A stretch of 64,000 bases of DNA from an uncultured Pseudobdellovibrionaceae bacterium (GCA_964588335.1 CAZPOV010000008.1:68918-132917), one strand, 5' to 3'. Positions 3,977 through 16,674 are shown, counted from the first letter of the stretch. The notes: generated by a model from the sequence alone, not told the origin. Program-made: numbers and translations.

Positions 3977-4483
3977 CTACTGCTTTGTCTTCTTTTTGCT
4001 GGTTTTGGTCTTCGATTTTGAGGACTTTTTCTTTGCAGCTGTGGTCTTTTTATTCGTCGTTTTTTTGGCTGCTTTTTTCTTGCTGGTTTTCTTTTTCTTT
4101 GTGGATTTTTTCTTATTGGTAGTGGTTTTGAGACCAAGGGCTTTCATTTGGCTTCGAATCAGTTTTTCAATGGACTTTTTTTGAGTTTGAGCCAGTTTTT
4201 GCAGGTCCTTGATATGAGCTTCGGCCTCATCGCGACGTTTTTTTAAGGCTTTAACCGCCGAGTTGAACTCCTTATCAAGCTCTTTTTGTTTGCCAGTGAT
4301 TTTGCGAGAAAACACGCGGTATTGCTTTTCCAATTGGTTCAAATGCTGTTGAGTCGGCTTTTGGATTTTTTTATAGGCTTCCAATTCCGTCAGTTCATTT
4401 TTAAGACGGTTTATTTCCGACTGTAAAAAGTCGGGCTGAAAAAGTTTATTCAATTCTTTTTTCAACTGATCGAAAGAAATCAT
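3977..4483 (-). CDS. Coiled-coil protein with histone H1-like lysine-rich C-terminal tail
   Basis: ATG at 4483 is preceded by GGAGGAGG, so the longer ORF start at 4522 is unlikely. The N-terminal ~120 aa have a heptad-like, K/E/Q-rich composition. The last ~50 aa are K/T/S/A low complexity (KKKSTKKKKTSKKKAAKK…). Confidence 0.7.
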   Translation of the reverse strand: MISFDQLKKELNKLFQPDFLQSEINRLKNELTELEAYKKIQKPTQQHLNQLEKQYRVFSRKITGKQKELDKEFNSAVKALKKRRDEAEAHIKDLQKLAQTQKKSIEKLIRSQMKALGLKTTTNKKKSTKKKKTSKKKAAKKTTNKKTTAAKKKSSKSKTKTSKKKTKQ

Positions 4484-4596
4484 AATGGGGCCTCCTCCAT
4501 TTTTCTGAGTCGGAGTGTACACTCTTTCTTTTAAACAATCTAGACTCTTCAGATAATCTTTTGCGATTCTTTTGGATTTGTTTTACTTCACTACTC

Positions 4597-5787
4597 ATGG
4601 ATCGAATGGAATTTATAAAACATTCATGGCTGGCCTATCCCAGTTCAGAAAAAATCCCGAAACGGGCAGTGTGTGGGCGTGTCCAAGCCATCGCATCGGA
4701 TTCCATAGAGTTACAGGGAACCGAAGCTCGACACACACTCTTCACGGCCGAAGTGACCCAAGGTCGCCACCCACTCTTGGGCGCGACTTGTGAGATTTCC
4801 CACTTGCAAGTGGGCGATTGGGTGGCTTGGTTGCCCGAATCCAAAGGACTTTTTCTATTGTCTCCTTGCCTGAGTGAAGCTCCCCCTCAGTCCTCGGTGG
4901 AGGCTGAGCAGTGGTCGATGTTTTTAACAAAAGTCGAACACTTTTTTGTTGGTCAGGGTTATCTTCATTTGCGAACGCCTTTTTTGGTGCCGTCTCCAGG
5001 TGTTGATCACCATATTGATTTTTTAAAAGTCGAAGCCAGTCGGACAAAAAGACGGTGGACACTGCCCACCAGTCCGGAAATTCATTTGAAAAAATTTTTA
5101 TGCCAAGGCTATCAAAAAATTTTTGAAATCAAGAACTGCTTTCGAGACGACCTTCCAGGGCCACAGCACAAGGTCGAATTCACCATGATTGAGTGGTACC
5201 AGAGTTTTGCCACCCTTGATGACATTATCGATGACCTCAGAAACCTGTTGTCGGAGTTGACCGACCGGTCCATGGATCTGCAAGTTAGAGATCTTGCTGA
5301 CGTTTTTGAGGAAAAAACCGGATGCGCCTTGAGTCCCAAGACCAGCCGGTCTGAACTCAGTGGTTGGGCGCAAGCTCTTGGAATTGAAACTTCAGTTGAT
5401 GATGACTGGAATGATCTCTTCTTCCGCCTTTTCATGGAAAAGGTGGAGCCTTATTTGGGGCAGGATAGACCAATTGTATTAAAAAAATTTCCGTCACAGC
5501 AGGCGTCCTTGGCTCAGATTGACGAACAAGGGTGGGCCCAGCGATTTGAACTTTACTGGCGCGGTGTCGAACTGGCTAATGCTTATTTAGAAGTCAATAG
5601 CCCAGAGGAGAATCGGGCGCGGTTCGCAAGTGAAGAGTCACTCCGTCAGCAGGCCGGGGGTGATTTGGCCCCTCTGGATCAAGACTACTTTCGATGTTTA
5701 GAGCTGGGAATGCCTCCGGCCAGTGGTATCGCCCTGGGTTTGGATCGCTTGTATTCTGTGTTAAATAATAGAGATCGTCTGTCCTGA
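4597..5787 (+). CDS. epmA: EF-P lysine ligase-like class II aminoacyl-tRNA-synthetase paralog (EpmA/GenX/PoxA-like) with an extra N-terminal domain
   Basis: Class II core motifs are present: GYLHLRTPFLV, TSPEIHLKKFL, FEIKNCFRDD, EFTMIEWY, FELYWRGVELANAY and GIALGLDRL. ATG at 4597 is preferred to TTG at 4561. About 100 aa precede the catalytic core. Confidence 0.7.
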   Translation: MDRMEFIKHSWLAYPSSEKIPKRAVCGRVQAIASDSIELQGTEARHTLFTAEVTQGRHPLLGATCEISHLQVGDWVAWLPESKGLFLLSPCLSEAPPQSSVEAEQWSMFLTKVEHFFVGQGYLHLRTPFLVPSPGVDHHIDFLKVEASRTKRRWTLPTSPEIHLKKFLCQGYQKIFEIKNCFRDDLPGPQHKVEFTMIEWYQSFATLDDIIDDLRNLLSELTDRSMDLQVRDLADVFEEKTGCALSPKTSRSELSGWAQALGIETSVDDDWNDLFFRLFMEKVEPYLGQDRPIVLKKFPSQQASLAQIDEQGWAQRFELYWRGVELANAYLEVNSPEENRARFASEESLRQQAGGDLAPLDQDYFRCLELGMPPASGIALGLDRLYSVLNNRDRLS

Positions 5788-5886
5788 TGATCTGGGGCGT
5801 TATTGGGTCAATGACTCGATAGGACTGAATTTAAAGGACCTTGCTTGCTCGCTGATTTTCTTGCATTTTTAAGGTTCGAATTTTGA

Positions 5887-7647
5887 ATGTTGGGGTACTC
5901 ATTGCAATTAGAAATGGAAAAAACCAGCCAGGTCGCACCGATGTCTGACATTTGCCGTCAATGGCAGCAAAGTGGTCAGATCGATATGGACTGGTATTTT
6001 GAGCTCGCCGAGAAATTTGGCAGCCAGAAAATCATTTTTAATTCAGTGCAAGTCGAATCGCCCCTTTTTAATCGTCTTAAAGAGAAAACCCAACAGCATC
6101 AATTGGCGCCGGTTTATGTGGTCACCGCTGAGCAGTTTCTTGAGATTGAAAAGTTGCAAGAGCATTTGAATGAAGGCGTGCATTACACCATCCTCATTTA
6201 TTCGCCACTGTCCACCGAGATGATCTGTCTGGTGGATAAAATGCAGGCTTATCTCTCGCAACTTAGTTTTGTGATTTTAGCAAGGAAGGACTGGAATGTT
6301 CGTAACTGCTATCGTTCGGTTCCGCATTTTATGCGATCGCGATTGTTCGTTGATTTTCCGGTGTCGATTCATGAGAGTGATCCTTTTTACGAGCCAGCTG
6401 AATTGACTTCAACCCGACAGAATTTTGAGAAAGATTTTCTCGACCAAGATATTCCTTCGTTCTGTCCGAACCTGGGCTTGTACAACGAGTGGGGTAAAAA
6501 AAACATCTCGCACTTTTCGAAGCCAAGAAAGCTTTTGAAAACAAAGCCGAAGGTTTCAGTCATTGCTTTGGATCCAGATAAATTAAAACCACTTTTGGAC
6601 AGCAAAGTTTTGCAGAAGTCTCCAGAAGACTTTGAAATTTTAATCACCCGGGTGGCGGGGCAGAAAACTAAAGTCATTCCTAAAATCAAAGCCGTTACTT
6701 CGACTCGGTATTGGGCGCATCCTGTGGATGCAGCGAAACCGGTTTCTGAGAAGGTACTGGCCAACTTCACCGCCAGTCAAGCCGACGGCGATATTCTTGT
6801 CTTCCTCGACTCGCAAGACGAAGACAATTTGGATGGGCTGTTTTCTGTCTTACTCGCCGGTGAGGTTAATTTTGGAAAGTTATTGATTCGAAAAAATCTC
6901 TTGGTTTTTTCAAAACAGGGCTTCTTTGCAGCCGGTGGTTTTGATGATTTACTGACCTCTTGGGAAGCCGATCGCATCCGATTGCAAAACACACTCTACT
7001 CCAGTTTATTAACTGAGGAGCAAACTAAGAATATTGGTGCCGTTCTAAAAAACGTAAAAAACTCCTGTGACCAATTGTTGCTCGCCCATCGCTTCGCCGA
7101 TCGCATCGAAGACTTTGGTTTTTTGGCAGGAGGAGCTCCTAAAACTCAAGAGTTGATGCAAAAAAAAATCTATGAAGAAGTTTTTGGATACCACAAAGAT
7201 GATTTGAAGCAGGCCCATAAAGTGATTTATCAATCTTCGGTGGGTGTGGCTGTTGAAGGGAGCCTTAAGCGATCGCTCGATTTTGTTCTGCGTTACATTC
7301 AGTTACACGCCTGGAGGTTAAGTCCTTTGCGGATCCGGCACCAGCTTCGGGTGAATTATTGGCAGTACAATATTTTTCATCACGCCTATCACTTTATTAA
7401 AATGCACGCCTGGAGAGTCAATCCTTTCTCCCATGCTTGGATCTGGTTTTTTAACCCCTGGAGCTACAAGATCACTTGGTGGCTTTGGTATTCGCCTCAA
7501 CGCCTGTATGGTTGGTGGGTTCGTGGTTACTGGCAGGCTTACCGTGTGGCTTTTCCGATTCGCAAAATTTACTACTTCCTGCATTTTCAATATGAAAAAA
7601 GAATTTTAGGACTCCATTCAAAACGTACAAAAATAAGAGAAAGTTAG
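5887..7647 (+). CDS. Hypothetical protein with a weak GT-A-like central segment and a Trp/aromatic-rich C-terminal repeat region
   Basis: 586-aa ORF, first gene of the operon. The central VSVIALDPD…ILVFLDSQDED is only weakly GT2-like. The C-terminal ~100 aa hold about a dozen Trp and a duplicated HAWR(L/V)xP motif. Confidence 0.55.
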   Translation: MLGYSLQLEMEKTSQVAPMSDICRQWQQSGQIDMDWYFELAEKFGSQKIIFNSVQVESPLFNRLKEKTQQHQLAPVYVVTAEQFLEIEKLQEHLNEGVHYTILIYSPLSTEMICLVDKMQAYLSQLSFVILARKDWNVRNCYRSVPHFMRSRLFVDFPVSIHESDPFYEPAELTSTRQNFEKDFLDQDIPSFCPNLGLYNEWGKKNISHFSKPRKLLKTKPKVSVIALDPDKLKPLLDSKVLQKSPEDFEILITRVAGQKTKVIPKIKAVTSTRYWAHPVDAAKPVSEKVLANFTASQADGDILVFLDSQDEDNLDGLFSVLLAGEVNFGKLLIRKNLLVFSKQGFFAAGGFDDLLTSWEADRIRLQNTLYSSLLTEEQTKNIGAVLKNVKNSCDQLLLAHRFADRIEDFGFLAGGAPKTQELMQKKIYEEVFGYHKDDLKQAHKVIYQSSVGVAVEGSLKRSLDFVLRYIQLHAWRLSPLRIRHQLRVNYWQYNIFHHAYHFIKMHAWRVNPFSHAWIWFFNPWSYKITWWLWYSPQRLYGWWVRGYWQAYRVAFPIRKIYYFLHFQYEKRILGLHSKRTKIRES

Positions 7648-7648
7648 A

Positions 7649-8587
7649 ATGAAGTTTTCGATTGTGATTCCAACCCACAGACGACATCAGAGTTTGATTC
7701 ATTTGCTTGAATCGATCAAAAAACAAACCTATGAGCCTTCTCTATTGGAAATCAATATTGTCACCAACCTTCCGGATCCCTTTTTTGAGTTTTCTCAGTT
7801 TCGAGAGGTTGCTGAAGGTTTGGATTGGAATGTTTATACTGTCAAAGCCTTAGGTGTGAATAAGGCTCGCAATCTCGGCATCAGGAAAGCCCAAGGTGAC
7901 CTCGTATTGCTCTTGGATGACGACTGTGAGCTGAAATCTTCAAACTACCTGTCCGAGCTTGAAGGTTGGCATCAGCGCCATCCGCGGGCGGTGGCCATCG
8001 GTGGATCGTATGCGGTCGATCACACGGCGACACCTCTGGACCGCGCCTATAATTGTGTGGCTAAGCAGTGGCAGGCTCTGGATCATTTTGGAGATTACCG
8101 ATCCAGTCGGTTGGTCGGCGGCAACGTTTGTTATAAGAAGGATTTGCTTTTGCGGTCCGGTGAGTTTTTTGATGAAGGTATTGCCTTTGGTGGTGCCGAG
8201 GCCGAGTTTCATTGGCGCTTGAATAAAAAGGGTTTCGAAACCCTTTTTATTGAGTCGCTTGAAGTTTTTCACAAGACTCAATTGCGGGTCGACGACTTGG
8301 TTCGTAAAGCTGTGTTGCAAGCGCAAGGACATTTGCGATATGAAATTGATGACGGCTTCTCCGATAAGGCCAGTCGCACTTATCAAAACAAACGACTGTT
8401 GCTGGCCCGTGAGTGCTCGCGCGATTTCGAAGAGTTCCATGAAATTGTGCATTGGATGAATTTGTTCGACTGGGCCTACAACTACACCTGTCTCCACCCG
8501 AGTGTGACGCCTAGAAAGGTGTACTCAAAATCGAAAAGATGGTCTGGTAAAAGTTCGATCAAGCCAACACTGGAGGCGAGACTTTGA
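7649..8587 (+). CDS. Glycosyltransferase family 2
   Basis: N-terminal FSIVIPTHRR…LLESIKKQTY and the DxD-type LLLDDDCEL. The start lies 1 nt after the upstream stop. Confidence 0.8.
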   Translation: MKFSIVIPTHRRHQSLIHLLESIKKQTYEPSLLEINIVTNLPDPFFEFSQFREVAEGLDWNVYTVKALGVNKARNLGIRKAQGDLVLLLDDDCELKSSNYLSELEGWHQRHPRAVAIGGSYAVDHTATPLDRAYNCVAKQWQALDHFGDYRSSRLVGGNVCYKKDLLLRSGEFFDEGIAFGGAEAEFHWRLNKKGFETLFIESLEVFHKTQLRVDDLVRKAVLQAQGHLRYEIDDGFSDKASRTYQNKRLLLARECSRDFEEFHEIVHWMNLFDWAYNYTCLHPSVTPRKVYSKSKRWSGKSSIKPTLEARL

Positions 8588-10293
8588 TTACGAAATCCTT
8601 GCACTCGTCGATTCAGCCTGATCCAACCGTGAAGTCTTATTATTGGGAGGGCACCAAGTATTATTACTTGCCCCTCTTTTCAAAGACCTTGATGAGCCCA
8701 GTTATCGAAACCGCCCTTGGTGCAAACAACCCGGTGGATCGAAATTGGCCTCAGATTCGCGAGTCTGTATTGAAAGCCACAGCCGGACACTACAGCCATA
8801 TAAAAATCCCGTTGGATCGAGTTCAAAATGAGGTCGTTAGCGAAATTGAAAATTATTTGGATATCGAAACAAACTTGGGATTGATTTACCAGGTTTGCAG
8901 CAGCTTCTTGTTTGATGATGAGTTCTACGCTTGGCTTAAAACCTTAGGCTCTGTGCGAATTGAGTGGATTCTCGATGAACGCAATAAAACAATCGATACA
9001 CGCTTACTTGAGATCTCAAAAGGCTTGGCAGAAAGCCATGTCAGCGTGGTGGTTCACCGTGATTTGGACTGGCGACAGGTTTTAGGTGGCTCGGTCTTCA
9101 AAAAATTCAAGACGATTCATCTGTATTTTAGTTACCAATTTGAATTGTCTAGTCCGTTTCTCAACTGTAAAGAAAGTCATAAAATTGTCGGGATGTTGCG
9201 AAAGAAATTCCCTCGTCATGAATTTTTACCACCGAAGGGTGTTGACCTTTGGGATCATCGCGCACGCTCTGACTTCGACATGGAACCTTTGGTCTTTCCT
9301 TGTTTTCAAACTCGAAGTCGCAACCCTGATTTGAAATACTCGGTGATTATTCCAACCTACAACAATCAAAACCATCTGCGAGTGGTTCTCAAACATCTTT
9401 ACAAGCAGAATGTCGGTTTGGATCAATTCGAAGTGATTGTTGTTGATGACGGCGGCACCGATCAAACTCAACCCCTAGTCATTGAGCTTCTCAATAGTTT
9501 TCCTGAACCCATGAATTTTAAGTACGTCTTCTTTCAAAGACACCGCAAAAGAGTGATGGGTGATTCTCAGTACCGAGCCGGAATTTCAAGAAATGTAGGT
9601 GTTAAAAATAGCGACGCAGAAATTCTTTGTTTTCTAGATTCCGATATCATTACGCCCGCAGATTATTTGCAAAAGGTAGGTGAGGGGCTGCAAGAGTATG
9701 ATGCTTTGCAGGCCAAACGCATCAACCTGAGCCAGTATGCTAGCAACCTGGATTTTGAATACGGTAGTGTCGATGAAGAAAAGGACTGCATACCCGATGA
9801 AAGTTACTGGGAAGAATTCATTGCCAACACCACGCAATGGGATCAGCTCCCTTATAATTGGAAATATGTCTGCACCCATAGTTTTTCATTACGCAAAGAC
9901 CTGTTTTGGAAAGTCGGTGGACTGAAGAAGAATTATATATTCTACGGATTTGAAGACACTGACTTGGGTTACCGTCTGGTTAAAGGCGGCTTCAGGCTGC
10001 ACCTTCTGGATGCGAAAGTCTATCATATGTTCCATGAGAACACTCGATCAGAGTTTATGAACTTGAAGTCGTTAAGACACAGTCTCCTGAGTCGTACTGC
10101 CCAAATTTTCTACCTCCATCATTTGGATGAGGATATTTTTGAAAACCTCTTGGGTTTTATGGAGCCTGAACCGACTTTCCAACGAGTGATCAATCGCATA
10201 TTTAAAACAATGAGTTTGCAATTTTTGTGGCGCCCTAGGCCCATGGTTTATCGAAGTGTCGGTCGGGCTGCTAAGGTGGCCTATGAAAATTGA
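8584..10293 (+). CDS. Two-domain protein: unknown N-terminal ~250 aa plus a C-terminal family 2 glycosyltransferase
   Basis: TTG start overlaps the upstream TGA (TTGA), with GGAGG 6 nt upstream. GT2 motifs YSVIIPTYNN, VIVVDDGGTDQT and FLDSDII sit in the C-terminal half. Confidence 0.8.
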   Translation: MITKSLHSSIQPDPTVKSYYWEGTKYYYLPLFSKTLMSPVIETALGANNPVDRNWPQIRESVLKATAGHYSHIKIPLDRVQNEVVSEIENYLDIETNLGLIYQVCSSFLFDDEFYAWLKTLGSVRIEWILDERNKTIDTRLLEISKGLAESHVSVVVHRDLDWRQVLGGSVFKKFKTIHLYFSYQFELSSPFLNCKESHKIVGMLRKKFPRHEFLPPKGVDLWDHRARSDFDMEPLVFPCFQTRSRNPDLKYSVIIPTYNNQNHLRVVLKHLYKQNVGLDQFEVIVVDDGGTDQTQPLVIELLNSFPEPMNFKYVFFQRHRKRVMGDSQYRAGISRNVGVKNSDAEILCFLDSDIITPADYLQKVGEGLQEYDALQAKRINLSQYASNLDFEYGSVDEEKDCIPDESYWEEFIANTTQWDQLPYNWKYVCTHSFSLRKDLFWKVGGLKKNYIFYGFEDTDLGYRLVKGGFRLHLLDAKVYHMFHENTRSEFMNLKSLRHSLLSRTAQIFYLHHLDEDIFENLLGFMEPEPTFQRVINRIFKTMSLQFLWRPRPMVYRSVGRAAKVAYEN

Positions 10294-11557
10294 CGATCTT
10301 AATGAATCAAAAACATTCTGTGTCTTGCCATTTATCCACGCCGCGACTTTGACGGATGGGCAAACGCCCCTGTGTTGCGTTTCTGAGGAGCGGTCCGGGG
10401 TCAACCTCAACAAAGGGACCATCGCCGACCACTGGAACAGTCGTTATATGAAAAACATCCGTCAACAGATGTTAAAAGGCAAGCCCGTAAAAGACTGTCG
10501 CCGTTGTTATGAGGAAGAGAAAAATGGTTACCGCAGCCATCGTGTTATCGAAAACAAAGCGTGGCGAGAGAAATTGGGCGAACAGGCCATCGAGGAAATT
10601 GTTGGTCGAGTCGAGGCCAGTGGGGAAACCAAACAAGGGGTTATCGCCATAGACTTGCGCTTGGGCAACACCTGTAACTTGCAATGTGTGATGTGCCAAC
10701 CTCGGGAAAGCTCAAAATGGAAGGGTGCCGGTCAAAAATTCCTGACCGAACTTCGCGACCATGGTTTAAAAAAAGAGTGGCGCTATAAAAATGACATAAA
10801 AGTCGAGCAGTTTGAATGGTACCGCAACGCCAAGTTCTGGGAGAATTTAAAAACCTTTTTGCCGACTCTTCGAGAAATCATCATTGGTGGCGGCGAACCG
10901 ATGCTGATCAAAGAGCATTTGAAATTTATAAAAGAAACCGCAGAATCGGGCGAGGCCAGTCACATCCATTTGCGTTACCATACCAATATGACTGTTTTTC
11001 CAGAGGAGATGGTGCCTTATTGGGAGAAATTCGAACGGGTTGAATTCTTTTCCAGCATAGATGGCATGGAAGATATCGGCCATTATGTCCGCTATCCTGC
11101 AAAATGGGATATTGTCGAAAAAAATATCCGTAAAATTGACAAGCTTGGCGACAATATCCTTTTGCGGCTTCTGTATAGTGTGAGTGCTATGAACGTGCAT
11201 CACTTACCCGACTTCATACGTTGGGTTCGCTCAGAAAATTTTAGCAAGTACGAGCATTTTTCCAGTATGCAAGCTTTTGTCCATCCGGGCTTGGTGCATT
11301 GGCCACAGTATTTGAATGTCAAAGTTTTACCCCAGGAATACAAACAGGCTGTAACAGAGGAGTTTGATCGACTCAGAGAAGAGCTTTCTGATGAGCCTTT
11401 TGACAAGTACGAGGGTATTGTCAATTTTATGAACTCCCAAGATTGGAGCGAAAAGCTGCCACAGTTTAATGATTACGTCAGAGTGTTGGATAAAACCAGG
11501 GGCACTGATTTTTACTCCGTCTTCCCGGATCTGAGCGAGTCGGTTTTAAGCGTTTGA
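10283..11557 (+). CDS. Radical SAM enzyme with an N-terminal SPASM/twitch-like Cys-rich domain (paralog 1)
   Basis: ATG at 10283 follows AAGGTGG. The N-terminal region reads FCVLPF…DGQTPLCC…WNS…CRRCY. The core has GNTCNLQCVMC (CX3CX2C) and IIGGGEPML. Confidence 0.85.
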   Translation: MKIDDLNESKTFCVLPFIHAATLTDGQTPLCCVSEERSGVNLNKGTIADHWNSRYMKNIRQQMLKGKPVKDCRRCYEEEKNGYRSHRVIENKAWREKLGEQAIEEIVGRVEASGETKQGVIAIDLRLGNTCNLQCVMCQPRESSKWKGAGQKFLTELRDHGLKKEWRYKNDIKVEQFEWYRNAKFWENLKTFLPTLREIIIGGGEPMLIKEHLKFIKETAESGEASHIHLRYHTNMTVFPEEMVPYWEKFERVEFFSSIDGMEDIGHYVRYPAKWDIVEKNIRKIDKLGDNILLRLLYSVSAMNVHHLPDFIRWVRSENFSKYEHFSSMQAFVHPGLVHWPQYLNVKVLPQEYKQAVTEEFDRLREELSDEPFDKYEGIVNFMNSQDWSEKLPQFNDYVRVLDKTRGTDFYSVFPDLSESVLSV

Positions 11558-11567
11558 GAGAGATGAA

Positions 11568-12953
11568 ATGAAAGAATATTCGAAGACATTTTGTGTTTAC
11601 CCATGGATTCAGCAGCAAACGACGCCAACCGGGAAAATTAATTTCTGTTGTATCTCAATGCACACTTTTGTGCCGCGTGAAGATGGCAAGCCCATGATGC
11701 TTGATAAAGAGACGTTTAAAGATGCTTGGAACTCTGGCTACATGAAAGATATCCGCAAAAAAATGGTTAACGGTGAAGCTGTTACCGGGTGTGAAACCTG
11801 TTACGAGCAAGAAAAGGTCGGTAAACGCAGCTATCGTCAAGCCCACAACGAGGAATGGTCGAAGAAATTGGGAGCCAGAAAAATCGAATCCTTAGTCAAT
11901 CGATCCATCGACAACGATTTTTTTGTCGACCAGCCGCCGGCTTACCTGGATCTGCGATTAGGAAACCTGTGCAATTTAAAGTGCCGGATGTGCAATCCCT
12001 ATAATAGTGTTCAGATTCAAAAAGAATGGGAAAAGTTGGATAAGAAGTCTGACAATCAGTATTCCAAGTTTTGGAACAAGTATGGTTTGGAGTTTGGAAC
12101 CTGTACCCCCTGGTATGAGAGTGATCAATTTTGGACCGGTGTCGAGGAGAACATCCCGTATTTGAAAAAAGTCTATATGACTGGTGGTGAGCCGACCCTG
12201 ATTGAGGGTAACTATCGGTTTTTAAATAAATGCCGCGAAATGGGCTACGCCAATAAGATTGAACTCTTTTTCAATATCAATTTTACCAATTTAAAAGATG
12301 ATTTCATTGCGCAACTGAACGATTTTCATTGGGCCAGTGTGAATGCAAGTCTTGATGGCTACGGCATCGTTAATGAGTACATTCGTGCCCCGAGCCGCTG
12401 GGATGTAATCGATAAGAATTTTAGGAAATTGGCTAAGCAGGGTGGGCGTCGAGTGGCGCTTGGTATCAGTCCCGTCATTCAGATTTACAATATTTTAAAT
12501 ATCGTCGATCTGCTGGAGTACGCGGAAGAGGTTATGGAAGAGTTTAATCGCGATATTATTATCGATTTTCTTTTCTGTTTGCATCCGGACTTCCTTGATA
12601 TCATCCACTTACCGGACAATATAAAAATAGAAGCTTTGGCTCGTCTTGAGGAATTCAAGATGTCGTCCCAGACCTATGCAAAGAAAACCGACAAATCTTT
12701 CTTTTTGAGAAATGGTGTGGACAGCACGATCACGCGTCTTGAAAAATCAATGGGGCAGGAAAACCCAGAAATGATTAAAGACTTTATCCGCTACAGTCGA
12801 ACCCTGGATCAAGAGCGCCGCCAAAGCATGCGTGACTGTCTCCCAGAGTTGGTCTTTCTCTTGGAAGAGGCGGGCTACAGCTATGACGACCAACCATCTA
12901 TGGTGGAGATGGCGGGGCAAGCCAAGGAGGTTGAGAGTGTCAGACACCCATAA
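11568..12953 (+). CDS. Radical SAM enzyme with an N-terminal SPASM/twitch-like Cys-rich domain (paralog 2)
   Basis: Same layout as paralog 1: FCVYPW…INFCC…WNS…CETCY, then GNLCNLKCRMC and MTGGEPTL. Confidence 0.85.
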   Translation: MKEYSKTFCVYPWIQQQTTPTGKINFCCISMHTFVPREDGKPMMLDKETFKDAWNSGYMKDIRKKMVNGEAVTGCETCYEQEKVGKRSYRQAHNEEWSKKLGARKIESLVNRSIDNDFFVDQPPAYLDLRLGNLCNLKCRMCNPYNSVQIQKEWEKLDKKSDNQYSKFWNKYGLEFGTCTPWYESDQFWTGVEENIPYLKKVYMTGGEPTLIEGNYRFLNKCREMGYANKIELFFNINFTNLKDDFIAQLNDFHWASVNASLDGYGIVNEYIRAPSRWDVIDKNFRKLAKQGGRRVALGISPVIQIYNILNIVDLLEYAEEVMEEFNRDIIIDFLFCLHPDFLDIIHLPDNIKIEALARLEEFKMSSQTYAKKTDKSFFLRNGVDSTITRLEKSMGQENPEMIKDFIRYSRTLDQERRQSMRDCLPELVFLLEEAGYSYDDQPSMVEMAGQAKEVESVRHP

Positions 12954-13962
12954 GTCGATCACTTTGGTCAATTATGAGGGCGATGCTCTGGCCCTTTCAG
13001 CCGAAGAGGCCATGATTAAAAAATACAACTCTTGGCAAGGGTGGCAATGCTCGGCAGGGGCCGAAAATGTTTTTATTGATGCCGATGGATACGTCTACGT
13101 GGCGGCTTGCAAAGTCAAAGGCAAACAGGGTAACGTTTTTCAAAATCAATGGGAGCTGGATGAGCAGTGGACGACGTGTCCTGCCAAATGGTGCATGTGT
13201 GGCCAGGATATGCAGTTGCGGAAGGTTCGCGATGAATCCTTCTTTTCCCTTCTCGATTATCCACCGGCAAGTAACGTCGACGAGATGGACCGTGTCGATT
13301 GGGTTGTCCCCCATTACTACCACGGCTTTGTGACGCATCCGCGATTTGTGACTTGGGACCTGGGGCGCCGCTGCAACTACTCTTGTAGCTATTGTCATCC
13401 CCTGATTTCCAATCAAACGGATCCGCTGCGCACCGAGGACGAGTTGATGGCTGCGGTCGACCTTATCGAAAAGCGCTTCACCAAAAACAATAAGGCCAAA
13501 TGGATTTTTACGGGCGGGGAACCGACAATCATTCCCTCCTACATGAAAATGATAAAAAGCCTTCGCGGTAAGGGGCATGACCTGCATACTCAGACCAACG
13601 GTAGTCGAAATCCCGATTATCATCGCGAATTGATTGGTTACAGTTTTGTTGGCGTCAGCGTTCATCTTGAGTTTGCCAATGACGATCGATTGTTAAAAAA
13701 CTTCGAAGCCATCATTGATGAAAAACATAAAAACAAAACGGCTGGTTATAACTGGTTCGGCGTTCGGATCATGGTGGGCCCTGGCAATCTTCAGCGGGCC
13801 TTAGAATTAAAGACACGAACCCAGGGTATCAAACACTTCAGTAAACATGGACATATTACTTTGAGTCCTCTTTACGAAAACAATACCACGGACCCAACTC
13901 ACCATGGCCGAATGCTGACTTACGACCCGGAAGAGTTCAAACAAATCCTATCCCACGCCTAA
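12937..13962 (+). CDS. Radical SAM enzyme with an N-terminal Cys-rich domain (paralog 3, divergent)
   Basis: GTG at 12937 lies 6 nt after AGGAGG, and the 12832 ORF start is an overlap artefact. The N-terminal region reads WQCSAG…IDADGYVYVAAC…GN…CPAKWCMC. The core has GRRCNYSCSYC and FTGGEPTI. Confidence 0.8.
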   Translation: MSDTHKSITLVNYEGDALALSAEEAMIKKYNSWQGWQCSAGAENVFIDADGYVYVAACKVKGKQGNVFQNQWELDEQWTTCPAKWCMCGQDMQLRKVRDESFFSLLDYPPASNVDEMDRVDWVVPHYYHGFVTHPRFVTWDLGRRCNYSCSYCHPLISNQTDPLRTEDELMAAVDLIEKRFTKNNKAKWIFTGGEPTIIPSYMKMIKSLRGKGHDLHTQTNGSRNPDYHRELIGYSFVGVSVHLEFANDDRLLKNFEAIIDEKHKNKTAGYNWFGVRIMVGPGNLQRALELKTRTQGIKHFSKHGHITLSPLYENNTTDPTHHGRMLTYDPEEFKQILSHA

Positions 13963-14110
13963 AACAACCGCCGCACCATATACCCAGAAGGTGCCAGGCA
14001 CGTTTCGGGTAAAACAAACGCCGCACCATATACCCAGAAGGTGCCAGGCACGTTTCGGGTAAAACAAACGCCGCACCATATACCCAGAAGGTGCCAGGCA
14101 CGTTGCGGGT
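13961..14110. repeat. Tandem direct repeat, 3 copies of a 50-bp unit
   Basis: The unit is aaaacaaacgccgcaccatatacccagaaggtgccaggcacgtttcgggt, at 13961-14010, 14011-14060 and 14061-14110. Copy 1 has one substitution (13968), and so does copy 3 (14105). The repeat starts inside the stop codon of the last radical-SAM gene. Confidence 0.95.
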
Positions 14111-14303
14111 ACACGGTGCGGCACGGTTCTGTGGTTAAGAGTCGTTTCTTAGCTTTCTTACCTCGACATATTTTGATAGGTGGTTATGATAAAATCTACT
14201 GTCTCGATCTTCGCTTATTGCCTCTATAAATATTTTCAGGGTTTTTATTCTCAACATATTTAAATACTATCAGTCCTTGAGTTCGCAACACTGTGGCTCA
14301 GTT

Positions 14304-15524
14304 ATGACGGGTGAAAATTTGGAAACGCAACGACTGGAATCGAATGTTCAAAAAGTTTTCTGGCTGAATGGCTCCTTTAGCTTCATGGTCTTGATGCCCA
14401 TCATCGTGCCGTTTTTCCAGAGTCGTGGATTGGATATGAGAAACGTCTACGAGCTGCAGGCGATTTTCGCCGGTTGTGTGCTTTTACTTGAGGTTCCATC
14501 CGGGTACTTTTCTGATCTGGTGGGGCGTAAGGGAACTCTAATTATTGCGTCTTTATTTCATTGCTTGGGATTTTTAGTTATGGCCTTGGCGCCTGGTTAT
14601 GCCGAATTGGTGGTGTCCGAGGTTCTGTTGGCATTAGCGATCAGTTTATTTTCAGGCACCGACCTGTCGTTGCTGTACGACTCCTTAGAGGCTTTGGGTA
14701 GTAAAAAAGCGACCATAAAAATAGTCGGGAGAACTGTTTTTTTTCGCAACACAGGGGAAAGTTTTGCCGGACTCTTGGGAGGTTGGCTTTTGCTATGGCA
14801 TTTCGAAGCGCCAGCCATTGCGCAAGCGGCTGTCGGTTTGCTGCCCCTGTGTATTTCGCTCACTCTTTACGAGCCGCCTCGCAAAAAAATGTCGGCCAAA
14901 GAACACCGAGAGAACTTGCAGTACATTTGGAAGGCTTTGTTCGGACACTCTAATTTACTGACACTGATAATCTTAACGGGTGTGTTTTATAGTTTTGTCA
15001 CGTTGGCAGCGGTGTGGATGTTTCAAGAGTATTGGCAGACACTGGGTGTGAGTCTTACCCTGTTCGGGTACTTGTGGTTTGCAATTAATATTGCGGTGGC
15101 AATCACCGGACGGTTTGCCCACAAAATTGAAAAAGTACTGGGCAGTGAGGGGGTGTTGTTGCTTATGGGGACCCTGCCTGTTCTGGGTTTTTTAGGAATG
15201 GGTTTTGTCGGCAGTCTATGGGGACTTTTGTTCTGCTTTTGCTTTCAAGTTTGTCGAGGATTGACGTCCGTGGTGATGCCCGATGCCCTTAATAAAAGAG
15301 TGGCTGGGGATATGCGTGCCACCGCCAACTCGATAATGAGCTTAGGGACACGAATACTGATGGTTGGGCTCGGCCCCGTCATAGGAGCTGTGATTGACCG
15401 CCAAGGGCTGCCCACGGCCATGACCAGTCTGGGTTATTTGTATGTCGGTGTATTTTTTGTTCTCTTGTTGCCACTCCTGGCTTTGAGAAAACAATTTGAT
15501 CCGATTCCCCGTCGTTCATCATGA
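14304..15524 (+). CDS. MFS-type transporter
   Basis: About 12 hydrophobic segments and an MFS loop motif (GYFSDLVGRKG). The start is uncertain: ATG at 14304 or TTG at 14277. Confidence 0.8.
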   Translation: MTGENLETQRLESNVQKVFWLNGSFSFMVLMPIIVPFFQSRGLDMRNVYELQAIFAGCVLLLEVPSGYFSDLVGRKGTLIIASLFHCLGFLVMALAPGYAELVVSEVLLALAISLFSGTDLSLLYDSLEALGSKKATIKIVGRTVFFRNTGESFAGLLGGWLLLWHFEAPAIAQAAVGLLPLCISLTLYEPPRKKMSAKEHRENLQYIWKALFGHSNLLTLIILTGVFYSFVTLAAVWMFQEYWQTLGVSLTLFGYLWFAINIAVAITGRFAHKIEKVLGSEGVLLLMGTLPVLGFLGMGFVGSLWGLLFCFCFQVCRGLTSVVMPDALNKRVAGDMRATANSIMSLGTRILMVGLGPVIGAVIDRQGLPTAMTSLGYLYVGVFFVLLLPLLALRKQFDPIPRRSS

Positions 15525-15585
15525 GAAGAAGGTTCATTAGTCAAGAGGCCGACTGCCTCGATGTCGGGGATTTTTAGTTTTCATG

Positions 15586-16674
15586 TTATCCAAGAATTCC
15601 GGTGGACACATCTTGCTTTTCAGGGCGCCCTTGGTACATGGAAGTGAGCTGGCCACAGGCTGCAAAGATATCGCGCCCCATGGTCTTACGAATCGTCACA
15701 TGAAATCCCTTGTCGAGAAGGTAACGCTGGAAATTGAAGACACGGCTGCGAGGCGGCCGTTGGTAGCCGGCGTCCGGGTGTTCGTTGAAAGGAATCAAAT
15801 TTATTTTACAAGGAACCGTTCGCAATAACTTGGCCACTTGTTTGGCGTGATCGATGTGATCGGTAACATCCTTAAGCATGACATATTCAAATGTCACTCG
15901 ATCGTTGGTCGCTTCAGCGTGGGCGCGGCTGGCTTCGATAAGTTCGCTTAAAGGATACTTGCGATTGATCGGCATAATTTCATTGCGGACCTCATCATTA
16001 GGAGCATTGAGGCTGACTGCTAAGCGTGTTCCCGATTGCGTGATCAATGGAATTTGCGGCACCAATCCAGAAGTTGAGACGGTGATTTTTTTTCTTCCAA
16101 TGTTGAGGCCGAAATCCGATTTGAAAATATCAATGGCATCAAAAACAGCCTCAGTATTGTCGAGAGGCTCACCCATGCCCATGAAAACAATATTGCTGAT
16201 ACGAGTGTCGTTCATATCCATTTTAACTTGCAGGAACTGACCAACGATTTCACCAGCGGTGAGTCGACGCTTCAATTTTTGTTTTCCTGTGAAGCAAAAT
16301 TTGCAAGCTAAGTTACAGCCCACTTCAGAGGATAAACACAAAGTGGTGCGTTCCCCAGAGGGAATCATCACGGCTTCAACGGTTTGCCCTTCACCAATAT
16401 CAAACAAATATTTTCGGGTGCCATCGACGCTGACTCTTCGGTCCACCATTTTCGGAAGTTCAAAGCTGAAGCGATTCCACAAGGCGTGACGAAAATCTTT
16501 CGAAAGATTTGTCATCAGTTCAGGATTGGTCACCTGTTTTTCGTACACCCACTTGAAGAGCTGTTGAGCACGAAACTTTTCTTTCCCCAGGCCCACAAGA
16601 ACCTTTTCTAGCTTCGCTAGAGGGTAGGAGTAAAAATCAAAAACTTCAGCGTTTTCCATGGTTTCAGGTACCAT
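15586..16674 (-). CDS. rlmN: 23S rRNA/tRNA (adenine-C2)-methyltransferase, radical SAM
   Basis: Motifs FRAQQLFKWVY, VGCNLACKFCFTG, NIVFMGMGEPLDN, ITVSTSG and a C-terminal CGQL. Confidence 0.9.
   Translation of the reverse strand: MVPETMENAEVFDFYSYPLAKLEKVLVGLGKEKFRAQQLFKWVYEKQVTNPELMTNLSKDFRHALWNRFSFELPKMVDRRVSVDGTRKYLFDIGEGQTVEAVMIPSGERTTLCLSSEVGCNLACKFCFTGKQKLKRRLTAGEIVGQFLQVKMDMNDTRISNIVFMGMGEPLDNTEAVFDAIDIFKSDFGLNIGRKKITVSTSGLVPQIPLITQSGTRLAVSLNAPNDEVRNEIMPINRKYPLSELIEASRAHAEATNDRVTFEYVMLKDVTDHIDHAKQVAKLLRTVPCKINLIPFNEHPDAGYQRPPRSRVFNFQRYLLDKGFHVTIRKTMGRDIFAACGQLTSMYQGRPEKQDVSTGILG

Follow-up and report, generated by a model that had tools for sequence, protein, structure and literature searches.

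Three neighbouring radical SAM enzymes with cysteine-rich modules ahead of the core in an uncultured Bdellovibrionales bacterium

Three adjacent radical SAM genes

The window analysed here is a stretch of 64,000 nucleotides (GCA_964588335.1, CAZPOV010000008.1:68918-132917) from an uncultured Bdellovibrionales bacterium (Bdellovibrionota). The locus of interest is colinear with contigs of two Bdellovibrionales metagenome-assembled genomes (MAGs), at about 96% protein-level identity. It encodes three consecutive radical S-adenosylmethionine (SAM) enzymes, which we call P1, P2 and P3. In all three a cysteine-rich module precedes the CX3CX2C motif of the core, as a preliminary description of this DNA had proposed, and the motifs quoted there were all found in place:

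10283..11557, + strand: P1, radical SAM enzyme of 424 residues, member of NF033640 (N_Twi_rSAM)
10319..10510, + strand: amino-terminal twitch (truncated SPASM) module of P1, residues 13-76, C13-x12-G26-x4-C31,C32 ... C72-x2-C75
10673..10696, + strand: radical SAM cluster motif CNLQCVMC in the core of P1 (C131, C135, C138)
11568..12953, + strand: P2, radical SAM enzyme of 461 residues, from a second, distinct orthologous group of NF033640
11592..11804, + strand: amino-terminal twitch module of P2, residues 9-79, C9-x12-G22-x4-C27,C28 ... C75-x2-C78
11970..11993, + strand: radical SAM cluster motif CNLKCRMC in the core of P2 (C135, C139, C142)
12937..13962, + strand: P3, radical SAM enzyme of 341 residues with a GTG start, from an uncurated family almost confined to Bdellovibrionota
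12976..13224, + strand: amino-terminal five-Cys module of P3, residues 14-96, N..GW.C38.AG..I..DG.V..C58..G..GN...C81....C86.C88..D...K
13372..13395, + strand: radical SAM cluster motif CNYSCSYC in the core of P3 (C146, C150, C153)

The open reading frame (ORF) enclosing P3 spans 12832-13962. Its true start is most likely the GTG at 12937, because AAGGAGG lies 7 nt upstream and the resulting length of 341 residues is the same as that of a 96%-identical homologue; counted from there, the first 17 nt of the gene lie within the end of P2.

Each protein carries five cysteines ahead of its core triad. Those of P1 are residues 13, 31, 32, 72 and 75, followed by C131-x3-C135-x2-C138 and no further cysteine; P2 has 9, 27, 28, 75 and 78, then C135, C139 and C142, with four additional cysteines elsewhere; and P3 has 38, 58, 81, 86 and 88, then C146, C150 and C153, and no others. 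We aligned P1 and P2 with 41 homologues (43 sequences, 41–87% identical to P1, P2 itself being 31% identical) and P3 with 37 homologues (38 sequences, 26–71% identity). The five amino-terminal cysteines and the three core cysteines of P1 are invariant in 43 of 43 sequences, with the amino-terminal cysteines of P2 sitting in invariant columns, and the eight corresponding residues of P3 are invariant in 38 of 38. Conservation of the amino-terminal cysteines, which the preliminary description had left to be checked by multiple alignment, is therefore complete in both sets. Because mean column identity in the two alignments is just 42–46%, this invariance reflects selective constraint beyond shared ancestry alone.

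P1 and P2 belong to a curated family

The architecture and family assignment of these proteins can be given with high confidence. P1 scores 383.5 bits against the NCBIfam model NF033640 (cutoff 170), with residues 9-419 on model positions 1-396 of 398, and P2 scores 367.5 bits (residues 5-428 on positions 1-394). Judged by sequence, both are full-length members of this curated family, 'N_Twi_rSAM', and their architecture is already catalogued there. The Pfam SPASM model (PF13186) matches residues 13-76 of P1 at 22.9 bits (gathering threshold 21.5; model positions 1-67) and residues 9-79 of P2 at 19.9 bits, slightly below the threshold; the Radical_SAM match begins behind it, at about residue 127-131 in the two proteins (residues 127-290 in P1). 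P1 and P2 share 30–31% identity, in line with the preliminary description, which called them alignable with each other. Their amino-terminal auxiliary layout, on the other hand, is not the unrecognised oddity it had been taken for: it defines NF033640, for which we find 470 homologues at E ≤ 0.001, several of them named by NCBI 'twitch domain-containing radical SAM protein'.

P1 and P2 conform to the model (398 positions) along its whole length, through an amino-terminal twitch region, the CX3CX2C core and a helical carboxy-terminal region, and show no difference from it, whereas P3 matches in the core only (38.5 bits against the cutoff of 170). Searches of the literature and of the sequences of solved structures returned no paper on NF033640 and no solved relative. 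A RadicalSAM.org perspective notes, as a general remark only, that additional conserved cysteines lie amino-terminal to the barrel in some SPASM/twitch megacluster members. Distant full-length relatives of P1 are also encoded by jumbo phages (Ralstonia phage RsoM2USA, MG752970.1, 217354-218673; Vibrio K566/K567, VS1 and VS2), at 19–22% identity over 80–98% coverage.

P3 represents a separate family with permuted domain order

No NCBIfam family matches P3 above its cutoff. Our searches gave about 90 homologues of P3, for which 74 genome loci were recovered. Full-length genes of the family lie nearly all in Bdellovibrionota MAGs (Bdellovibrionales, Bacteriovoracaceae, Halobacteriovoraceae), with two distant exceptions, and often occur twice per genome.

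Aligning full-length profiles with hhalign superimposes only the core (P3 134-228 with P1 119-242, probability 96%, E 5e-9). The P3-type and P1/P2-type amino-terminal modules, compared alone, give a non-significant E of 0.4, and the Pfam SPASM model does not pick up the P3 family, where a single sequence among 38 reaches E 0.1. With the profile alignment confined to the core and the modules alone at E 0.4, we rejected P3 as a divergent N_Twi paralogue. The earlier view of P3 as a divergent paralogue of the other two holds for the radical SAM core and fails for the module, which is STM4011-like: P3 scores 40.6 bits against NF038073, the STM4011 family (cutoff 200), through this module alone (model positions 197-253 of 278).

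A phmmer search with residues 15-105 of P3 against 1.8 billion representatives returned 440 matches. The module lies at about residues 20-105 of some 340 in P3-like proteins and at about residues 240-320 of 300–370 in many other radical SAM proteins; some matches are entries of just 76–140 residues, perhaps stand-alone proteins, perhaps fragments of genes. When aligned, 20 modules show one pattern at any position in the chain, N..GW.C.AG..I..DG.V..C..GG.GN...C....C.C..D...K, with the first four cysteines in 20 of 20 and the fifth in 19 of 20. BLASTP of P3 against a protein with a carboxy-terminal module (P0244) yields two pieces, P3 14-96 with P0244 238-320 (33% identity, E 4e-17) and P3 138-282 with P0244 19-155 (27% identity, E 2e-14), and a protein from the gammaproteobacterial locus L047 (L numbers denote fetched loci) gives the same two-piece swap. 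Because these pieces come in exchanged order, P3 is best described, from its sequence, as a domain-order permutation related to radical SAM proteins whose five-Cys module is carboxy-terminal.

The latter, STM4011-like proteins of about 300–370 residues whose nearest curated model is NF038073, have both a five-Cys module and a core homologous to those of P3, and adjoin N_Twi genes in L038, L047, L050 and L053. They differ from P3 in the opposite order of the two domains, and P3 itself falls outside NF038073 by score. We found no paper and no defined reaction for the STM4011 or P3-type families in the literature, and no relatives among solved-structure sequences. In three distant P3-type genes (L047 9965-11440, L046 4055-5290 and L049 9896-11185), an insertion of about 70–120 residues splits the two halves of the module. 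Weak hints tie the module to SPASM/twitch domains: a 76-residue copy matches SPASM model positions 1-41 weakly, at E 0.006, and the module of P3 begins with C-x12-G-x6-C around a predicted β-hairpin.

The first part of the P3 core, cluster loop included, has its best sequence matches in prokaryotic viperins (NF038283, 42 bits against a cutoff of 180, model positions 3-95 only; PADLOC pVip, 45 bits, model positions 2-80 of 257). Viperins lack a Cys-rich auxiliary module, the scores are far under cutoff, and P3 has no defence-type context; anti-phage defence models (PADLOC) gave only weak sub-threshold viperin-like matches to the radical SAM core. A search of phage records found no homologue of P3.

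The three genes are linked across rearranged loci

We ran hidden Markov models of both alignments over the ORFs in every fetched locus. A flank of at least 3 kb on each side is available for 22 P3-family loci. Within 5 kb of the P3-family gene, 12 of these have at least two N_Twi genes, three have one and seven have none; one of these seven (L004) holds two very divergent N_Twi genes below the score threshold. The triplet is thus largely kept as a unit, a point that the preliminary description had left to be checked. The N_Twi partners form two orthologous groups, 40–87% identical to P1 and 41–87% identical to P2, with about 28–30% identity between groups, and P2-type orthologues are always paired with a P1-type gene. 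Such pairs are found in at least four gene orders and orientations, those with P3 being:

P1-P2-P3 on one strand: window, L008, L009, L036
P3, then P1, then P2: L006
P3-P2-P1: L027
P3 convergent with P2-P1: L011, L012, L014, L022, L030, L081, L087
P3 divergent from P2-P1: L031

Clustering of all neighbouring ORFs other than the radical SAM genes revealed none common across lineages. The two kinds of enzyme are also found joined in one chain: P0267 (798 residues) fuses an N_Twi enzyme to a five-Cys enzyme with the module carboxy-terminal, and L048:1431-4109 (892 residues) fuses the same two types with the module ahead of the second core, as in P3. In several loci (L038, L047), five-Cys enzymes with amino-terminal and with carboxy-terminal modules lie adjacent, beside N_Twi genes. 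The fusions indicate close functional coupling, compatible with a complex and with successive steps alike. Because linkage is kept through rearrangement and the enzymes are naturally fused, the three types very likely work together.

Solo P3-family copies (L016-L019, L024, L029, L084) are about 40% identical to P3 and about 335–380 residues long; the MAG nearest to the window organism has one of them besides its three-gene set, and in one case (L084/L019) the surroundings, with carotenoid, hydrolase and queA/tgt genes, give no functional clue. In a separate locus (L085 6707-16489, GCA_019752925.1), seven radical SAM genes of 423–527 residues follow one another in the interval between the nuo and the ATP synthase genes, and the amino-terminal twitch profile recognizes six of the seven.

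Predicted structures and comparison with SPASM/twitch enzymes

Modelling with AlphaFold2 from the two alignments above was confident, and the models of P1 (predicted local distance difference test score, pLDDT, 92.5; predicted template-modelling score, pTM, 0.90) and P3 (pLDDT 91.5, pTM 0.89) were compared by Foldseek with the Protein Data Bank. P1, whose module is modelled as a β-hairpin at residues 19-29 followed by helices, matches SkfB best and also anSME, BlsE, viperins and MoaA; P3 matches BlsE (E 2e-6), a viperin-like enzyme, TYW1, SkfB, QueE and anSME. TM scores are 0.3–0.45, at 12–19% identity.

With canonical SPASM/twitch enzymes (BtrN, MoaA, anSME, SkfB, BlsE; PF13186) the proteins of this locus share a partial TIM-barrel core plus a Cys-rich module, marked by a C...G....C hairpin and CxxC; by the PF13186 model the kinship of the module is supported for P1, borderline for P2 and not detected for the P3 family. 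In the canonical enzymes the auxiliary domain is a carboxy-terminal extension (PMC9012708), whereas in P1, P2 and P3 it stands ahead of the core; the canonical domains have three or four conserved cysteines, and the modules described here have five. The auxiliary cluster of characterized twitch/SPASM enzymes takes the substrate-radical electron in two-electron oxidations (BtrN, PqqE, SuiB), and that of MoaA binds substrate at an open iron site (PMC9012708). By analogy we infer that each amino-terminal module most likely holds one auxiliary [4Fe-4S] cluster; five cysteines could provide full four-Cys ligation plus one spare.

Genomic context and candidate substrates

Upstream of P1 lie three further genes on the same strand:

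5887..7647, + strand: orphan protein of 586 residues, first gene of an apparent six-gene operon, no Pfam or NCBIfam match
7649..8587, + strand: glycosyltransferase family 2 (GT2) enzyme of 312 residues, Pfam Glycos_transf_2, E 1.2e-14
8584..10293, + strand: GT2 enzyme of 569 residues, Pfam Glycos_transf_2 (E 3.6e-19) plus Glyco_transf_7C

The first GT2 gene begins 2 nt past the end of the orphan gene, the second overlaps the start of P1 by 11 nt, and from 5887 to 13962 successive start and stop codons overlap or almost touch, giving an apparent, translationally coupled operon in the order orphan, GT2, GT2, P1, P2, P3. The amino-terminal 250 residues of the larger GT2 enzyme have no family assignment. 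A major facilitator superfamily (MFS) transporter gene follows P3 beyond a gap of 315 nt.

The order orphan-GT2-GT2-P1-P2 is kept in L036 (24–67% identity) and L088, and the orphan gene is also found upstream of GT2-GT2-P1-P2 in L001, L008 and L009. In L082 a lone P1-type gene lies among four GT2 genes, two sulfotransferase genes and one 2-oxoglutarate oxygenase gene. Because of these GT2 contexts (window, L036, L088, L082), we tentatively infer a glycan, glycolipid or nucleotide-sugar substrate, a doubtful choice at this stage. The nearest solved structures agree with it: BlsE, viperin, MoaA, anSME and SkfB are of the twitch/SPASM type or handle nucleotides and sugars.

On the model of characterized twitch/SPASM enzymes, each protein would reduce SAM at its CX3CX2C [4Fe-4S] cluster and take a hydrogen atom from an intermediate on which the glycosyltransferases work, be it a glycan, a glycolipid or a nucleotide-sugar, while the auxiliary cluster would accept the substrate-radical electron in a BtrN-type oxidation or anchor the substrate, as in MoaA. 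Since P1, P2 and P3 travel jointly in Bdellovibrionota and are occasionally fused, they would act on one common substrate, in successive steps or as a complex. Three co-working radical SAM enzymes with amino-terminal auxiliary modules and a glycan-type substrate are, on balance, the explanation that we favour, with moderate confidence.

Several observations weigh against it. A strong N_Twi neighbour is missing from seven of the 22 P3-family loci with flanks of at least 3 kb, and six of the seven are solo copies. The P1-P2 operon of L088 has no P3, although that genome encodes a P3 orthologue about 26 kb away with another N_Twi pair. GT2 neighbours are kept in the close lineage only: a second Bdellovibrionota lineage has instead genes for a patatin-like lipase, for a cysteine desulfurase resembling NifS/IscS and for a GDSL-like protein, besides nuo genes, and Acidobacteriota-type loci have QueC, a glutamine amidotransferase (GATase) and a dCMP-deaminase-like gene. 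Finally, the similarity to solved structures is weak and stems from the common core.

The second lineage raises the alternative that the substrate is a lipid or acyl chain and the reaction, say, a C-C coupling, a methylation or a desaturation on a membrane lipid, with the glycosyltransferases a lineage-specific glycolipid add-on. There a patatin-like phospholipase gene lies ahead of the three genes, a GDSL-lipase-like gene is nearby in L011, L012, L014 and L087, and the tetraether lipid synthase model Tes matches weakly at 15–23 bits. These Tes scores are far under the cutoff of 450, the window operon has no lipid enzyme, and the patatin and GDSL genes sit inside one block of broad synteny with nuo and lon, so that their adjacency may be inherited rather than functional; we regard this alternative as improbable. 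In the same lineage the patatin-like gene stands ahead of both N_Twi genes, sharing 38 nt with the first of them in L081, and the cysteine desulfurase gene directly adjoins the P3-type gene (L081 12404-13621; also L011, L012, L014, L022, L030 and L087).

That the enzymes modify a nucleotide, nucleoside or nucleic acid, with chemistry like that of viperin, MoaA or QueE and no relation to glycans, deserves little weight. The best matches of the P3 core are the viperin models, structural neighbours include viperin-like enzymes, TYW1, QueE, MoaA and BlsE, N_Twi-like proteins occur distantly in jumbo phages, and N_Twi pairs in L083 and L086 adjoin QueC, GATase and dCMP-deaminase-like genes, with QueE and PTPS also in L083. 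Set against this, the viperin score is 42 bits where 180 is required, P3 has no phage homologue, and the window operon includes no nucleotide-metabolism or defence gene, PADLOC having returned nothing else. A nucleotide-sugar substrate would fit both this alternative and the glycan-type explanation. The loci in question, a Joint Genome Institute (JGI) metagenome contig (L083) and an Acidobacteriota MAG (L086), have one or two N_Twi genes and a radical SAM gene of about 328 residues beside genes for a dCMP-deaminase-like protein, QueC, class-II GATase, PIG-L, an ATP-binding cassette (ABC) protein and a GT2, and look like a deazapurine or nucleoside-type cluster.

The enzymes might instead be maturases of a peptide made by the ribosome and modified after translation (RiPP), installing cross-links or epimerizations, a role filled by many SPASM/twitch radical SAM enzymes. 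Pointing this way are SkfB as the best structural match of P1, the downstream MFS gene, weak sub-threshold matches to the maturase models PapB, HxsB/C, CcpM and SkfB, and the presence of GT2 enzymes in some RiPP and mycofactocin clusters (MftF-like matches here are sub-threshold). All model scores are 15–28 bits against cutoffs of 268–855, however; NCBIfam and Pfam scans find no PqqD or RiPP recognition element (RRE)-type domain in P1, P2 or P3; the tightly packed operon leaves no space for a peptide gene; there is no conserved protease or ABC/peptidase partner; and BLAST over 13 loci found no ORF of 18–90 residues within 2 kb of the radical SAM genes that is common to different synteny groups, although a very divergent precursor could escape such a search. 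We consider peptide maturation very improbable.

That the amino-terminal modules are structural zinc-binding or disulfide motifs on single-cluster enzymes is likewise hard to credit: Pfam SPASM misses the P3 module in nearly all members and its C-x4-C-x-C spacing is unlike the canonical pattern, but P1 and P2 match SPASM end to end with the twitch pattern C-x12-G-x4-C ... C-x2-C, the 76-residue P3-type copy aligns with that model's first half, and the module is found solely attached to or beside radical SAM cores.

Known and new elements

The amino-terminal twitch layout of P1 and P2 was already known as NF033640. New here, from sequence comparison, are the placement of P3 in an uncurated family of its own, found almost only in Bdellovibrionota, the demonstrable domain-order swap of its five-Cys module relative to carboxy-terminal-type relatives, and the recurrence of N_Twi and five-Cys enzymes as a sometimes fused multi-radical-SAM set. 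Two different Cys modules stand ahead of the core, one by a straight domain swap, which suggests that position in the chain is not essential. The recurrent pairing and the fusions point to an uncharacterized multi-radical-SAM pathway that, with three small genes, is tractable. Our literature and structure searches found neither a biochemically defined reaction nor a solved structure for NF033640 or the P3 family, a point on which the preliminary description stands. Uncharacterized radical SAM families are very numerous, and the layout of P1 and P2 was catalogued before; the finding is for these reasons a well-defined target for enzymology and not a new principle.

A more far-reaching version of the three-enzyme explanation, which we put forward as speculation and consider unlikely, is that the set forms a self-contained radical machine, possibly a heteromeric complex as the fusions hint, that modifies a glycan or glycolipid typical of the cell envelope in predatory Bdellovibrionota. 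On that view the five-Cys unit found in P3 would represent a novel auxiliary-cluster domain class, separate from SPASM/twitch, which evolution has put at either end of the core or possibly kept as an independent small protein.

Other features of the operon and its surroundings

The 586-residue orphan protein has only eight homologues, all unnamed, among 5.8 billion proteins searched, and shows no similarity to the amino-terminal region of the 569-residue GT2 enzyme. Its last 110 residues or so contain W/Y/H/R-rich repeats of about 13 residues (HAWRLSPLRIRH, HAWRVNPFSH, AWIWFFNPWSY, WWLWYSPQRLY), which may bind a membrane surface. An EpmA/GenX-like gene at 4561-5787 scores 274 bits against the EF-P lysine aminoacylase model TIGR00462, just below the cutoff of 286.9, and bears an extra amino-terminal region of about 115 residues; it lies directly upstream of the orphan-GT2-GT2-radical SAM operon in L001, L008, L009, L036 and L088 as well.

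A promoter and terminator scan gave counts the same as in shuffled sequence. Downstream of P3 there is one further element:

13960..14111: three tandem 50-nt units, Tandem Repeats Finder score 290, 98% matches

The repeat starts exactly at the P3 stop codon and occupies much of the gap before the MFS gene; its unit has no other occurrence in the window. An Rfam scan of 4000-16000 gave chance microRNA matches only, on this repeat. The RNA of 13955-14135, which spans it, folds at -80 kcal/mol (z-score -5.7), and the repeat may serve as a structured 3' terminus of the operon.

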